This document shows positions 1 to 4,864 of a stretch of DNA of 64,000 nucleotides, piece by piece. A program made the translations under genes and the position numbers. The DNA comes from Escherichia coli. GTDB lineage: Bacteria > Pseudomonadota > Gammaproteobacteria > Enterobacterales > Enterobacteriaceae. Each line of letters starts with the position of its first letter. Position 1 is the stretch's first letter. The notes under the pieces were generated by a model. That model was not told the DNA's origin. It worked only from the letters and a program-made list of their open reading frames with translations, and did no database searches. The stretch is taken from NCBI RefSeq assembly GCF_003334335.1, contig NZ_QOWQ01000011.1, one strand, 5' to 3'.

Positions 1-456
1 AGTACGGATTTGGGGACGAAAAACACATCGTCGTTTGATTACGGAACCAAATCCACGAATAACACCGGGGCGCATACCCATAGTATTAGCGGGACTGCAA
101 ATAGTGCCGGTGCGCACCAACACAAGAGTTCCGGTGCATTTGGTGGCACGAACACGAGCATTTTCCCTAATGGTTATACCGCGATTTCAAATCTAAGCGC
201 GGGGATTATGAGCACAACAAGCGGTAGTGGCCAGACTCGTAATGCAGGGAAGACATCATCAGATGGTGCTCATACCCACTCGCTGTCCGGCACTGCTGCA
301 AGCGCAGGCGCACATGCACATACTGTCGGTATTGGTGCTCATACGCACTCCGTTGCGATTGGCTCACACGGACACACCATCACCGTTAACGCTGCTGGTA
401 ACGCGGAAAACACCGTCAAAAACATCGCATTTAACTATATTGTGAGGCTTGCATAA
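1..456 (+). CDS. stf: Phage side tail fibre protein, C-terminal part (5' end outside window)
   Basis: Open frame from base 1 with no upstream stop. Gly/Ser/Thr-rich with repeated GAHTHS / GAHAH / GSHGH motifs, like the His-x-His motifs of T4 gp37 and lambda Stf distal fibres. Its stop overlaps the start of the next gene. Confidence 0.7.
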
Positions 457-1037
457 TGGCATTCAGAATGAGTGAACAACCACGGACCATAAAAATTTAT
501 AATCTGCTGGCCGGAACTAATGAATTTATTGGTGAAGGTGATGCATATATTCCGCCTCATACAGGTCTGCCAGCAAACAGTACCGATATTGCACCGCCAG
601 ATATTCCGGCTGGCTTCGTGGCTGTTTTCAACAGTGATGAGTCATCGTGGCATCTTGTTGAAGACCATCGGGGTAAAACAGTTTATGACGTGGCATCAGG
701 GGACGCGTTATTTATTTCTGAACTCGGCTCATTACCGGAAAATGTTACCTGGTTATCCCCGGAAGGGGAGTTTCAGAAGTGGAACGGCACAGCCTGGGTG
801 AAGGATACGGAAGCAGAAAAACTGTTCCGGATCCGGGAGGTGGAAGAAACAAAAAACAGCCTGATGCAGGTAGCCAGTGAGCATATAGCGCCGCTTCAGG
901 ATGCTGTGGATCTGGAAATCGCAACGGAGGAAGAAACCTTGTTGCTGGAAGCCTGGAAAAAGTATCGGGTATTGCTGAACCGTGTTGATACGTCAACTGC
1001 ACAGGATATTGAATGGCCAGTAGCACCTATAGGGTAA
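456..1037 (+). CDS. tfa: Phage tail fibre assembly protein
   Basis: 193 aa ORF starting at the ATG that overlaps the fibre gene stop (TAATG). The sequence resembles Tfa-family chaperones of lambdoid and P2-like phages. Confidence 0.75.
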
Positions 1038-1895
1038 ATTCGTAATGATTACCTAAATACGTTATTCTTTTGTTCAAAAAGTGATTTTGCTATAGATAGG
1101 GAGTATGTTCTTGGATTAAGAATAAAAATCGCCATGAAAGAGCTTCATGGCGAGTACATAAACGTACAAAATGTGATGAAAGTAGAGTGGCGTAAGCCAC
1201 TATATTAAGATGTGACAATAGCGAAGAAAAGTAAATAACATTTTATGGACGTTTAATTGTTAATTATAAAAACTAGAGTGCCCGATATTGTTTACCTTGC
1301 TTTAAAATAATGTACTCAAACCAAATTTTTGAGCTAAAAGCTCAAATAATATAAATGCAATAATAATGTTTAATAAGACAATTAGCTTGCTTTGTATTTT
1401 CATTTCGGAATACTGTTAAGTAACTTTGATGACCCTAACAATAGATCGGAATTTTCTTAGAGTCAATGGTCACTGTTTTTGCTTGCAAAGCAAATGTTTT
1501 GGTGGTTATAAGTTGTCTTAATATAGTCACGCATGCAACTTGTTCCATGCGGAGATTAAAGATTGGAATATAACGCTAAGATGGAATTAAATTACATTTG
1601 CAATAATCAATTTATTATTACTCAATAATTACCGATATTATTATTGTAAATTAATCATTAGAGTGCAAAAAGAAATGTAACGGCAAAATAAGAGGACGAT
1701 AGCTGAGAAAAAAGCGTGCTTTCCCAATCTGGGGCAAATCACGTCTGAATGACACCTGAAAACAGGTGGTAGCCTCAAGAAGGCTTGGAATATTCTTCTT
1801 TAATGTTATGTAATTCATTGATTTTTCGTGTACGATTTAAAGACATTTATTCCAAGAAAAATTTTTAACTCTTTGATTTTTCGACTCTGTATCAT

Positions 1896-1957
1896 CGGTC
1901 TCGAAAACCGGAGTAGGGGCAACTCTACCGGGGGTTCAAATCCCCCTCTCTCCGCCA
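1896..1957 (+). tRNA. 3' fragment (about 62 nt) of tRNA-Ser(CGA) (serU-like): anticodon stem, variable arm, T arm and acceptor 3' strand ending CCA. Not a complete tRNA.
   Basis: CGGTCTCGAAAACCGGAGTAGGGGCAACTCTACCGGGGGTTCAAATCCCCCTCTCTCCGCCA matches the 3' two-thirds of E. coli serU as I recall it. The 5' acceptor strand and D arm are missing; upstream sequence is unrelated AT-rich DNA. Confidence 0.7.
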
Positions 1958-2541
1958 CTTTATCAATGACTTATCTCCCGACTTCCCGCCTTGCTTTTCC
2001 TAAACAGAACAATCGTAGAATATTCTTGAAGGGTTAGATCGTCACTGTTTTCTGTTCGATACTGTGACATTCAGCACTTGATTCGCTATGGATCTGACAG
2101 GAAGGTTTTGAGCGAAAATTTGCAGTTATTCAGTCGTTTTCTTATCGGTCACCATTATTCTTTTAGACATTGATCCTACAAAGCTGCCGCAAAGTTGGTG
2201 GTGGGAACTGAAGTTGCGTAGAGAAGGGGTCAATACCCGGAGGCAAACATGGGCTGGCAAAAGTGTAGCGGTATTAGGCGCAGCTATTTAGCCTAGTTAT
2301 GTTTTATGAAAACTTGATATCATATAAGTGTCTTACTTATTGGCTGTAAATAAGTTTTTCCTAAGGAATTGTTTCTTGAGTATCATTTGTAACTGTAACG
2401 GAATTTATAATCCTTTGCTTTATTGTTACGGTATTTTTTATCACACCCTATTTTTTATGTGGTTTTTTATACTGAAGTTTGGCAAAGTGAACTTTATATG
2501 CATATACTTCATCCTGGTTTCAGTTAAGTTGGGTGGATGAT

Positions 2542-3285
2542 ATGGCAACTACATGTTCAGTTATATTGATTTTGGAGTCCTTTGATGTTTATTTCGGAAA
2601 AGAGAGTGTGTTTCTGGAGAGAGGTTCATCTGTACTTGTCGACTCTAGCTCTAGAGATTTTTTCCTGACATATCCTGAAAGAGTGATAGTGGCGGATTTT
2701 GGCGCTGAGTTTATTAGTCGCTATTTGAAAGCTAATAACTTAAGGGATATTTCTGATTGTAGGGAATATCCATCTTATTTAAAAATAAACTTTGCTGACT
2801 TCAGTTTAATTAAAGGATTAATTAGTTGGGCTAATCACTGTGCTGAATACATAGAAATTTTTGATGAGTCTATTGCTTTTACATGTCTCTCTGCATTTTC
2901 TTCTGAAAAACAATTTGGAGTATTTCTGTTTGAATGTTTGAAAAGCACAGGGGCTAAAGTTAAAACGATTATTCATACGGATTTATCTGCACCATGGCGT
3001 CTTAAGGATATATCATCAAGATTATATCTCAGCGAAAGTTTACTAAAGAGGAAATTGAAAGAAGAGGGGGTATCATTCAGTAAGATCATACTTGATGAGA
3101 GGATGCAAATGGCTGAATATTTACTCAGCACTCGTTGTTATCCTATTAGTAAAGTAGCTAAGGTCTGTGGTTATGCCAGTGTCTCATACTTTACTTATGT
3201 ATTTAGACGTTATTTTGGTGTTTCTCCAAGTCAATACTCTCAGAGCAGTTCAGAAAGTAAAATTCTTACTCACCAGGGAATCTGA
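2542..3285 (+). CDS. AraC/XylS-family transcriptional regulator, AppY/EnvY/Rns-like, low GC
   Basis: C-terminal helix-turn-helix region (ISKVAKVCGYASVSYFTYVFRRYFGVSPSQY) and overall similarity to prophage-borne AppY. ATG at 2542 preferred over the GTG at 2533 used by the ORF track. Confidence 0.75.
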   Translation: MATTCSVILILESFDVYFGKESVFLERGSSVLVDSSSRDFFLTYPERVIVADFGAEFISRYLKANNLRDISDCREYPSYLKINFADFSLIKGLISWANHCAEYIEIFDESIAFTCLSAFSSEKQFGVFLFECLKSTGAKVKTIIHTDLSAPWRLKDISSRLYLSESLLKRKLKEEGVSFSKIILDERMQMAEYLLSTRCYPISKVAKVCGYASVSYFTYVFRRYFGVSPSQYSQSSSESKILTHQGI

Positions 3286-3289
3286 TCAT

Positions 3290-3790
3290 TGTTCTTGCCC
3301 CCTTATTTCCAGACAGGGGGTGTATCTTAAGTTAACGTTACCCGCTGACGTCGATATTCTCGCGGAGAGCGATAACCCAACGCACTGTGCGGATGGTTTT
3401 CATTGTAATGTTCGATCGCCACTGCAAGATTATGCAATGCCGTTCTTACATTCGGTTTCGGCATGAACGCGATGTAGTCTTCCTTCATCGTTTTCACGAA
3501 CCTTTCTGCCATTCCATTACTCTGAGGACTGCTGATTGCCGTTGTGCAGGGCTCCAGATTCAACTCTCTGGCGAACTGCCATGTTTCATGCGCTCTATAC
3601 GCTGAACCGTTATCTGTCAGCCACTGGATGGACTGTTCCGGTACTTTATCGCCAAAGCGTTTTTCTATCGCTCCTAACATGACATCCTGCACTGTCGCTT
3701 TATCGTAACCTCCCGTGCTTGCGGCCCAGTCTATGGCTTCACGATCGCAACAGTCCAGGGCGAACGTAACACGCAGTTTTGAATCGCCAC
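3290..3790 (-). mobile_element. IS3-family (IS2-like) insertion sequence remnant: one terminal inverted repeat plus the 3' part of the transposase gene
   Basis: Terminus TTGCCCCCTTATTTCCAGACA at about 3291-3311 resembles the IS2 right inverted repeat. The adjacent minus-strand ORF encodes a DDE transposase C-terminus. The element is cut off near 3780-3790 by a second IS end. Confidence 0.55.
3327..3692 (-). pseudogene. Truncated IS3-family transposase OrfB (C-terminal about 120 aa only)
   Basis: Translation ends ...[20 protein letters not shown], the conserved C-terminal signature of IS3-family DDE transposases. The N-terminal catalytic region is absent. Confidence 0.6.
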
Positions 3791-4080
3791 GGGTTTAACA
3801 GACACCTCAGAGTCATTTAAGATGGCTTAAAGAGAGGTGCCCATGAGCGGTAAGCGTTATCCCGAAGAGTTTAAAACTGAAGCAGTCAAACAGGTTGTTG
3901 ATCGCGGTTATTCTGTTGCCAGCGTTGCAACACGTCTCGATATCACCACCCACAGCCTTTATGCCTGGATAAAGAAGTACGGTCCGGATTACTCCACTTT
4001 TTCATCAAGCCAATCCGCCCACCACTGCATCATTTCTCTGCGCTTATCGAGATACTGAGCGTGGTTGTAAATTCAGCTAA
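3781..4080 (+). mobile_element. Second IS3-family insertion sequence remnant: left end plus truncated orfA
   Basis: TGAATCGCCACGGGTTTAACAGACACC resembles IS3-family left ends (TGA...GTTTAAC.GACAC, as in IS600). It is followed by an OrfA-like helix-turn-helix ORF and ends abruptly before the tI/sib hairpin. Confidence 0.5.
3837..4058 (+). pseudogene. Truncated IS3-family transposase OrfA (helix-turn-helix domain intact, C-terminus degenerate)
   Basis: N-terminus MSGKRYPEEFKTEAVKQVVDRGYSVASVATRLDITTHSLYAWIKKYG is a typical OrfA helix-turn-helix. No leucine zipper, frameshift window or orfB follows. Confidence 0.6.
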
Positions 4081-4088
4081 CCCAGTGT

Positions 4089-4136
4089 GTTGACAAAAAA
4101 TTAGCGCAAGAAGACAAAAAAATCACCTTGCGCTAA
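4089..4136 (-). terminator. Lambda tI/sib-like hairpin adjacent to the att P arm
   Basis: 10-bp inverted repeat TTAGCGCAAG / CTTGCGCTAA with a 16-nt loop, followed on the minus strand by TTTTTTG. It is the reverse complement of the lambda sib/tI sequence as I recall it. Confidence 0.55.
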
Positions 4137-4138
4137 TG

Positions 4139-4300
4139 CTCTGTTACAGGTCACTAATACCATCTAAGTGGTTGATTCATAGTGACTGGATATGTTGTGT
4201 TTTGTAGCATTATGTAGTCTATTTTTTAGACTGAATAAATTATAAGTCGTTGATATTAATTGTTTTTACCGTTTCACATTCAACTTTTTTATACTAACTT
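4139..4300. other. attR: Prophage attR (lambda-type P arm, core CTTTTTTATACTAA at about 4284-4297, bacterial B' arm)
   Basis: TCTGTTACAGGTCACTAATACCATCTAAGT... closely matches the lambda P arm; it diverges toward the core. Core and downstream CTTGAGCGAAACGGGAAGG match the E. coli attB side. Confidence 0.75.
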
Positions 4301-4387
4301 GAGCGAAACGGGAAGGTAAAAAGACAAAAAGTTGTTTTTAATACCTTTAAGTGATACCAGATGGCATTGCGCCATCTGGCAGAGTGA

Positions 4388-4864
4388 TTAACTAAACATC
4401 GCAGTAATCGAGGCGCTTGCCAGAGAGTGGAAATGAACGTTAAACCCGACCATCGCGCCGCTGGCACCTTCATCGACATCAATACGTTCTATATCCAGCG
4501 CGTGAACGGTAAAAATGTAGCGATGAGTTTCGCCTTTCGGCGGTGCTGCGCCATCGTACCCGGTTTTACCAAAGTCGGTACGCGTCTGCAAAACGCCGTC
4601 TGGCATTGCTACCAGACCAGAGCCAAACCCTTGCGGTAATACGCGGGTATCAGCGGGTAAGTTAACAACTACCCAGTGCCACCAGCCGGAGCCGGTTGGC
4701 GCATCCGGGTCGTAGCAGGTGACAACAAAACTTTTCGTTCCCGCAGGAACATCATCCCACGCCAGATGCGGTGAAATATTATCGCCATCGTAACCCATGC
4801 CGTTAAAGACATGACGATGCGGCAATTTATCGCCATCGCGCAGATCGTTACTGATGAGTTTCAT
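4388..4864 (-). CDS. ybhB: PEBP-family protein YbhB
   Basis: 158 aa ORF recognised as K-12 YbhB; position next to bioA. Confidence 0.9.
   Translation of the reverse strand: MKLISNDLRDGDKLPHRHVFNGMGYDGDNISPHLAWDDVPAGTKSFVVTCYDPDAPTGSGWWHWVVVNLPADTRVLPQGFGSGLVAMPDGVLQTRTDFGKTGYDGAAPPKGETHRYIFTVHALDIERIDVDEGASGAMVGFNVHFHSLASASITAMFS

Follow-up and report, generated by a model that had tools for sequence, protein, structure and literature searches.

Lambdoid phages such as lambda, with its bor and lom genes, HK97 and HK022 carry morons, additional genes that are inserted between the phage operons and are equipped with a promoter and a terminator of their own. The stretch analyzed here, positions 1038-2532 of a window of 64,000 nucleotides from Escherichia coli (the whole piece of contig NZ_QOWQ01000011.1 that was studied), follows the tail fiber assembly gene tfa of a lambda-family prophage. 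It probably contains a moron-type unit with a small gene similar to yncL, followed by a fossil attachment site derived from the tRNA gene serU, the stub of an insertion sequence (IS) and the region upstream of a patE-like regulator gene. In K-12, YncL is a membrane protein of 31 amino acids that is induced by stress and in stationary phase, and its production causes sublethal depolarization, a phage-shock response and nucleoid condensation; when overproduced it depolarizes the membrane, lowers viability and moves cells towards a low-activity state (PMC12542507). It is also an in vivo substrate of the intramembrane protease RseP (PMC10470546), and its Salmonella orthologue lies inside the sigma-S-dependent transcript STnc1110, which was first catalogued as a small RNA (sRNA) (PMC5437024). 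The regulator PatE (z0321), encoded in O-island 8 (OI-8), activates the gad/hdeAB acid resistance genes and represses genes of the locus of enterocyte effacement (PMC10877973).

Our comparison shows that the stretch is a mosaic in which every piece can be assigned, and it probably comprises two working parts and two scars. The preliminary description of this DNA had held that nothing here could be assigned with confidence from sequence alone, a view that fails once comparison sequences are used. We regard the anatomy as secure, and a patchwork b region with a YncL-like gene, a fossil attR, an IS stub and a patE control region is probably the best overall explanation. The first working part (1119-1466, minus strand) would be a moron-type unit with a promoter, the YncL-like gene and a 3' end that is structured and contains a strong terminator, and the second (2291-2541) would be the control region of a patE-like gene for an acid resistance and virulence regulator.

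The evidence for the small gene comes from the conservation and homology of a 33-codon open reading frame (ORF). Its length is unchanged in all full-length copies, including a lineage that is only 80% identical, whereas the spacer past its stop codon has decayed in this 21F61-type lineage to 62% identity with a 5-nt deletion and a 4-nt insertion. Sixteen codons of the ORF are variable, ten of them by purely synonymous changes and the others mostly by conservative replacements (V/I, I/F, F/L), and all five remaining frames across it contain stops. By the Nei-Gojobori method, the ratio of non-synonymous to synonymous substitution rates (dN/dS) is 0.11 between the window and 21F61 (17 differences; dS 0.85, dN 0.09) and 0.04 between the window and MP1, values which rest on 6-21 substitutions and three lineages. 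The preliminary description had proposed conservation of small ORFs across related prophages as a check, and it is this ORF at 1403-1302 on the minus strand that passes it.

The peptide has a single match in the NCBIfam scan, to YncL (NF000537, E 1.3e-5). In BLASTP it aligns without gaps to K-12 YncL (MNVSSRTVVLINFFAAVGLFTLISMRFGWFI), with 11 of 28 positions identical (39%, E 2e-7), and ten columns are invariant with the K-12 protein (M1, S5, L10, N12, A16, L19, F20, L22, F27 and G28). The match to NF000537 scores 25.0 bits for the window and 23.5 bits for the divergent allele, below the curated equivalog cutoff of 35 bits, and we therefore file the peptide as YncL-like, i.e., as a homologue or paralogue and not as YncL proper. 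None of about 20 inspected RefSeq and GenBank records annotates the ORF and PHROGs has no family for the 33-residue peptide, while the exact peptide occurs without a name in gene calls of ENA and JGI. Two ORFs that are annotated nearby in phage records were considered and rejected as the module's gene. The one in PhiR70_1 (1436-1549, minus strand) has lost its ATG, and in the ydfJ-type copy also its frame, and the one in ev099 (1652-1819, minus strand) lies outside the conserved module core. In the searched literature, of which the coverage was incomplete, we found no earlier recognition of an unannotated YncL-like gene in phages and prophages, and a literal search for the peptide sequence gave no paper.

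The gene belongs to a module that is present in 829 of 5426 complete E. coli genomes by BLAST, and 820 of these matches cover at least 80% of the query. The module follows a lambdoid tfa in every context inspected, i.e., at serU, at ydfJ (the Qin site), beside sit, at att-lambda and in three phage genomes. Since its core at about 1120-1585 keeps 90-95% identity where the 3' end of tfa falls to 62-65%, the module is an independent unit. Identity among most copies is 95-100%, and the data contain only three sequence lineages, the most divergent of which (strain 21F61 and one viral contig) is about 80% identical overall. Scans of viral contigs with the peptide pattern and the exact hairpin did not reveal any lineage beyond these three. 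Upstream of the gene, the -35 hexamer of a candidate promoter (AGTCAA on the plus strand) is invariant in six aligned copies and the -10 hexamer reads TATTGT or TATCGT. Downstream, a terminator scan predicted an intrinsic terminator at 1153-1129 on the minus strand, 150 nt past the ORF, with an 11-bp GC-rich stem followed by TTTTTATT.

Taken together, the small gene is likely real. The moron-type unit faces the late operon, and most likely the prophage expresses it separately from that operon; its terminator would also keep leftward transcription from entering the tail fiber genes in antisense direction. By analogy with K-12 YncL, the peptide would insert in the inner membrane and modulate the lysogen's membrane potential or its stress tolerance. 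Such a membrane-active role in lysogenic conversion is conceivable, though we hold it only tentatively.

Several observations weigh against the interpretation as a YncL-like moron, in addition to the few substitutions behind the dN/dS values and the score below the family cutoff. The sequence 5' of the ORF, CAGTATTCCGAA-ATG, has no recognizable Shine-Dalgarno motif, while K-12 yncL has AAGGTGG. The region does not have more promoter-like and terminator-like sites than shuffled sequences do, and the promoter, the transcript ends and the translation of the small gene are predictions. Composition alone can make short hydrophobic peptides look alike. Pattern scans of viral contigs and species representatives gave no homologue outside E. 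coli phages and prophages. Among 100,044 species representatives, the exact hairpin pattern, which is a blunt tool for a host-range search, returned three chance matches and one mis-binned contig and no other host genus. This contig, JAIJJM010000739.1 (1552 bp), is assigned to a metagenome-assembled genome of 'Collinsella sp.' (Actinobacteria) and is 100% identical to window positions 1038-1700; it almost certainly comes from an E. coli phage and was placed in the wrong bin.

The alternative that survives best sees the 3' element (1119-1213, minus strand) as the main functional product, so that the unit would be a dual-function RNA. In comparison with the divergent lineage, this element is the best-conserved part of the module, with an identity of 0.90 against 0.62 for both neighbors, the tfa end and the spacer at 1214-1301 (ORF, 0.83). 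The divergent viral-contig copies were fetched by the exact hairpin pattern, which biases them to hairpin conservation, but another divergent copy came from a BLAST search with the whole module. The element combines a stem-loop, an AU-rich single strand and a U-tailed terminator, and its predicted fold has a free energy of -27.1 kcal/mol (z = -6.9); the cataloguing of the Salmonella yncL orthologue as an sRNA points in the same direction. However, the element has no Rfam match, the divergent copies are too few for covariation, and recombination can also leave short patches of high identity. We therefore consider it unlikely that the RNA is the main product. Judged from the alignment, the conservation is read as a constraint on an RNA or terminator and not on coding, because the 24-codon ORF on the opposite strand (1134-1208, plus strand), which overlaps both hairpins of the 3' element and terminator, has changed by five non-synonymous substitutions and one synonymous substitution. 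The prophage sRNA svsR is unrelated, as it is located at the 3' end of cI (PMC12803456).

An extension of this idea is that the unit downstream of tfa encodes a dual-function RNA of lysogenic conversion, in which a YncL paralogue tunes the membrane potential and the 3' end is released as a trans-acting sRNA. This would be a speculative and rather improbable arrangement. If true, a dual-function RNA in about 15% of E. coli genomes would have been overlooked by every annotation inspected, and the paralogue might block superinfection or drive the lysogen into a tolerant low-activity state.

It is about equally improbable that 1038-2290 is functionless filler, with the ORF conserved only through the recent spread of one phage module. 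The high identity of most copies, the narrow host range, the missing Shine-Dalgarno motif and the fact that no annotation pipeline calls the ORF agree with filler. They do not account for the 80%-identical lineage, in which the ORF has stayed in frame with the dS and dN given above next to a decayed spacer, or for the resemblance of the peptide to a known protein family.

Still less probable is that the 33-codon gene encodes the toxin of a type I toxin-antitoxin pair which stabilizes the prophage and is controlled by an antisense RNA from the plus strand. The peptide is small and hydrophobic, and the effects of YncL overproduction on membrane and viability would fit a toxin (PMC12542507). A leader with a weak Shine-Dalgarno motif or none is likewise seen in many translationally repressed toxin mRNAs, and a weak promoter-like site lies on the plus strand at 1212-1241. 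This site, however, matches the consensus at 9 of 12 positions, such matches occur at chance frequency, and neither an antisense RNA nor a terminator for it was identified. We also know of no toxin-antitoxin system in which YncL itself acts as the toxin.

The second main component is the scar at 1615-2235. The tRNA fragment noted in the preliminary description is real and corresponds to nt 29-90 of serU (1896-1957). ARAGORN called no tRNA over 1896-1957 because the 5' part of serU is absent and only the 3' 62 nt are present. The segment 1896-2235 matches the native serU locus in 5423 of the 5426 genomes with 93-99% identity. In K-12 the native context is mtfA-serU-yodB, and the homology to K-12 ends sharply at 2235/2236. 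In Jnd12, APEC E12049 and 2020S05-013-9, a prophage in native serU ends with tfa, 858 bp that correspond to 1038-1895, the serU core and the flank, followed by yodB or zinT. As these native-serU prophages end identically, 1038-2235 is the right end of a serU prophage with its attR and adjoining host DNA, now relocated. The gene yodB is absent downstream of the serU flank in Jnd12 and APEC E12049, with zinT following after about 390 bp in Jnd12, and it is present in K-12, O111:H8 strain 1074-2 and strain 2020S05-013-9. This looks like a deletion polymorphism beside the prophage attR.

The phage arm to the left of the core is shared in steps with other phages. The 195 bp at 1701-1895 are common to other serU prophages, e.g., the nleC prophage of O111, and 1780-1895 is common to phage SerU-LTIIb. 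The serU segment plus about 15-20 nt constitutes the attP homology in ST64B and in Klebsiella and Citrobacter phages. Within the arm, the 18-nt direct repeats TAAyTCwTTGATTTTTCG occur at 1811-1828 and 1866-1883, 55 nt apart, and may be arm-type integrase sites. The site thus holds a partial 3' tRNA identical to the host gene, the arm of phages in native serU and native chromosomal flank up to 2235. However, it adjoins ybhB/bioA away from serU, and the resident prophage ends at a lambda-type attR, and for this reason the serU site is a fossil and not a working attR.

The whole 1495 bp is also carried by phages, as it is 98.9-99.3% identical in the records of ev099, mEp332 and PhiR70_1. In ev099 the order is tfa, the block, the AraC-family gene, IS remnants, attP, int and xis. 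Because these genomes hold the phage arm, attR and host flank contiguously, imprecise excision of the lambda-bio type is the reading we favor. An ancestor phage resident in serU would have excised imprecisely and carried the host flank along, and later recombination would have supplied the lambda-type sib-attP-int module that the lineage has at present. The 'complete genome' records of PhiR70_1 (PV340577.1) and mEp332 (PV340541.1) stop at or shortly before the att core and are thus linearized in prophage style and not at cos. The PhiR70_1 record leaves tfa unannotated.

The second scar (2236-2290) would mark the joint to the next cargo. Only the final 55 bp of an IS630-family element are left, the interior being cut off where it meets the serU flank, and this is therefore a remnant and not an element; the same 55 bp are found in PPompW prophages. 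The joint at 2235/2236 connects the serU flank to the interior of the IS630-family element and may be the joint of the illegitimate excision or the result of a later deletion. The unit of serU fragment, flank, IS stub and patE-like gene, with the joint at 2235/2236 included, occurs in 543 of the 5426 genomes. In Sp1-type and e14-like elements another left arm, from the pinE/GIY-YIG side, adjoins this unit at the identical base, and this other arm is also found at the attR of native-serU elements in 13 genomes. The possibility that the left arm of the tRNA fragment is arbitrary was ruled out, since both arm types also occur at attR in native serU.

The shared boundary is most simply explained by homologous recombination within the 340 bp that both types have in common, although an integrase may instead have mediated the exchange, or the unit may have been captured twice from an unsampled chromosome. 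The order of events proposed here is accordingly not unique, which weighs against the scheme of excision followed by module exchange: recombination within the 340 bp may have occurred, or the unit may have been captured from an unsampled chromosome in which patE follows serU. A native position of patE downstream of intact serU was found in 0 of 5426 genomes when searched with a chimeric query and was rejected for the sampled genomes. That the serU fragment has been kept as a working secondary attachment site for serU-specific integrases, allowing arm swapping and stacking of elements, is highly improbable. Two unrelated arms do abut the fragment at the same base, in the window and in Sp1, and both are also seen at the attR of native-serU elements. 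Homologous recombination in the shared 340 bp, however, yields the same boundary without an integrase, the window has no serU-type integrase gene nearby, and the fragment has neither the 5' half of the tRNA nor a bacterial left arm.

To the right of the scars lies the region upstream of the AraC-family gene. It contains the best promoter-like sequence of the stretch (TTGGCA-18-TATACT at 2479-2508, 10 of 12 matches), which presumably functions as a promoter, and a GGTGGA motif resembling a Shine-Dalgarno sequence precedes the ATG at 2542. The gene has YdeO as its best NCBIfam match (2e-43, under the cutoff) and falls in PHROG phrog_1450. Its close relative in O157 Sakai, ECs0287, is the sole AraC-family gene annotated in the retrieved Sp1 interval. 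From the Sp1/OI-8 position we infer that ECs0287 is z0321 and that the AraC-family gene here is PatE. In Sakai O157:H7, the patE unit and an IS remnant are directly followed by the P4-like prophage Sp2 (intS, a gene set of an ABC-three-component system, psu and ogr/delta), and therefore two elements are stacked at thrW. We did not find the patE upstream region described as a serU attR fossil in the searched literature, with the same incomplete coverage.

The base composition and coding content of the stretch were the main subjects of the preliminary description. It had called the region far more AT-rich than the flanking genes, which is correct on the upstream side, where the GC content of 34.6% contrasts with 47.6% in tfa and 50.8% in the tail fiber part (51.6% in the whole window), but not on the downstream side, since the AraC-family gene has a GC content of 35.2%. 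Together, 1038-2532 and this gene form the sole stretch below 40% GC in the 64 kb. The description had further seen no long ORF beyond the tRNA fragment. One of the two ORFs of at least 60 codons in the mechanical ORF list does cover the fragment (1828-2037), but the 70-codon ORF at 2328-2540, which none of the inspected records annotates, was overlooked; both have GTG starts, and with ATG starts only, the longest ORF has 55 codons. Shuffled versions of the region have a longest ORF of 66 +/- 17 codons, as compared with 69 codons here, and the ORF content is therefore at the chance level for such a composition.

The proposal that such a region holds H-NS-silenced promoters, sRNAs and very small proteins held up in kind, in that there is a 33-codon gene with a promoter-like site and a terminator as well as the upstream region of a regulator, but the chosen example, the 24-codon ORF beginning MKELHGEY, did not. 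This ORF is present as described in the ORF list and is open in all six aligned copies, but its position on the terminator hairpins of the opposite strand and its five-to-one excess of non-synonymous changes fit conservation at the RNA or DNA level. Despite the AT-richness and the small gene and regulator promoter region nearby, a general reservoir of this kind is a very unlikely account of a stretch of which about 40% (1615-2290) is a recombination scar of identifiable origin. With Rfam 15 at permissive thresholds, there was no real match within 1038-2532, only sub-threshold ones of the tRNA T-arm type (Plastid-psbl-rps4, tmRNA and sX4) at the T-arm region. Beyond what had been described before, our analysis adds the 278 bp of host chromosome after the tRNA fragment, the IS630-family end and the carriage in phage genomes.

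Features of the stretch and its surroundings, with positions in the window
Feature	Position	Strand	Basis or remark
tfa, tail fiber assembly gene	456-1037	+	ORF list, RefSeq annotation of RM10410
tfa-downstream module ('moron') with leftward small-gene unit	1038-1614	-	Conserved core about 1120-1585
3' element of the predicted small-gene transcript	1119-1213	-	Stem-loop 1186-1201, AU-rich single strand, terminator 1129-1153 with T-run
33-codon ORF, YncL-like single-helix small membrane protein (predicted), MKIQSKLIVLLNIIIAFILFELLAQKFGLSTLF	1302-1403	-	Hidden Markov model, BLASTP, coding-type conservation
Promoter-like TTGACT-17-TATTGT	1438-1466	-	Consensus scan, 9/12; predicted start near 1431
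P arm of former attR of serU-integrating lambdoid phages	1615-1895		Same arm in prophages at native serU
69-codon ORF, GTG start, over the tRNA fragment	1828-2037	+	ORF list
3' part of tRNA-Ser(CGA) gene serU, nt 29-90 from the anticodon stem	1896-1957	+	Alignment to K-12 serU
serU-yodB intergenic chromosomal DNA, 278 bp, displaced	1958-2235	+	Match to native locus
IS630-family right end: inverted repeat and final transposase codons PGGKHGLAKV*	2236-2290	+	Match to plasmid pJNE23-001_1
Upstream (regulatory) region of PatE-like AraC-family gene	2291-2541	+	Promoter scan; PGAP start 2542
70-codon ORF, GTG start, MSYLLAVNKFFLRNCF...	2328-2540	+	ORF list; stops at the start region of the patE-like gene
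AraC-family regulator, PatE-like	2542-3285	+	245/247 identical to O157 Sakai ECs0287 (Sp1)
Lambda-type sib/tI region, P arm and att core	4095-4297	+	Alignment with ev099; similarity to attP regions of lambda, 434 and further lambdoid phages

RM10410 is the E. coli strain whose chromosome the window matches with 100% identity, and the ORF list and RefSeq annotation give the gene order tail fiber, tfa, 1038-2532, AraC-family gene, IS3-family remnants, ybhB and bioA. The late operon ends with tfa, past whose stop codon the b region begins. This non-essential region extends from tfa to att in a lambda-family prophage at att-lambda, and 1038-2532 makes up its left half. The att core CTTTTTTATACTAA at 4284-4297 is the attR of the resident prophage and adjoins ybhB. 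The window and ev099 are collinear up to this core, after which ev099 continues into the P' arm and int and the window into ybhB, and because the collinearity ends directly after the core, the prophage is placed at att-lambda.

Upstream of the window in RM10410, a truncated pseudogene of the terminase large subunit abuts a truncated tail-protein pseudogene. The resident prophage is thus defective, and the junction means that most morphogenesis genes were lost by deletion. The DLP12-type genes rzpD, bor, ybcV, ybcW, ylcI and nohD precede the terminase pseudogene. The IS3-family remnants at 3327-4058, which separate the patE-like gene from the lambda sib region, are carried by the phage genomes as well. 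The Sakai annotation labels them as a partial ISEc48, the phage records as IS2 InsD or 'mobile element protein'. Within tfa, the Rfam family IS009 (RF02111) matches at 800-997 on the plus strand with 208.8 bits against a gathering score of 117. This match lies wholly inside the 3' half of the coding sequence, and what the family models appears to be a conserved part of tfa.

If the small gene is real, about one in seven complete E. coli genomes carry an unannotated YncL-type gene, as do lambdoid phages whose records are deposited as complete genomes. The link of YncL-type peptides to membrane depolarization and metabolic silencing is just emerging, and a phage copy would offer a natural handle on their purpose. 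The block is furthermore a clean, datable record of cargo pickup by a phage, with a tRNA fragment and its flank frozen beside patE, and it supports the idea that morons and regulators can be captured through imprecise excision and subsequent module exchange. That the patE upstream region starts with a serU scar matters for mapping the patE promoter. Scans that use tRNA fragments to find the boundaries of prophages and islands should take into account that the serU fragment here marks no boundary.

Each part of the stretch belongs to a known kind, namely a moron-like cassette, a peptide of the YncL family type, an attR relic of the transducing type, an IS remnant and a patE locus. Like K-12 YncL (b4598), the peptide is short (33 as compared with 31 amino acids), has one hydrophobic helix and is encoded in a stand-alone unit with a structured 3' end, and the two have the motif M-x-x-x-S-[KR]...L-x-N...A...LF-x-L...[KR]-F-G in common. 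Unlike yncL, which lies in the chromosomal order patD-yncL-ortT in K-12, the gene is borne by a prophage after tfa; its product is two residues longer at the C-terminus and scores under the family cutoff, and the Shine-Dalgarno motif is missing. The module resembles morons in its position between tail fiber and att, its deviant composition, its orientation against the late operon and its movement as a cassette. A promoter and a terminator of its own are predicted by consensus, with site counts not above those of shuffled sequences. It differs from known morons in that its product has only 33 amino acids and is unannotated in the records inspected, and in that its expression is a prediction.

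In the fossil attachment site, as in lambda-bio transducing phages, the right arm of the phage continues through attR into adjoining host DNA without a break, and the original integration module on the far side is lost. In contrast to lambda-bio, no more than 278 bp of non-coding host DNA was captured, and the event is an old one that has become fixed in a widespread lineage (the 543 genomes above). The phage now uses att-lambda, and the far joint lies inside an IS630-family element and not in phage DNA. Phage DN1 (MF374379.1), which has an annotated transduced bio locus, attR and a ybhB-like gene and matches window positions 4085-4390, is a present-day specialized transducing phage from the same att-lambda/bio junction. 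The region 1896-2541 plus the AraC-family gene is the same unit as that upstream of ECs0287 in the patE locus of CP-933H/Sp1 (OI-8) of O157:H7. In the Sp1 locus at thrW the neighbor of the unit is the pinE/GIY-YIG arm, whereas here the unit is found on a lambda-type tfa arm at att-lambda. Finally, the patE-like gene is comparable to appY of DLP12 in K-12, as both are AT-rich genes of AraC-family regulators at the tail fiber end of a defective lambdoid prophage.

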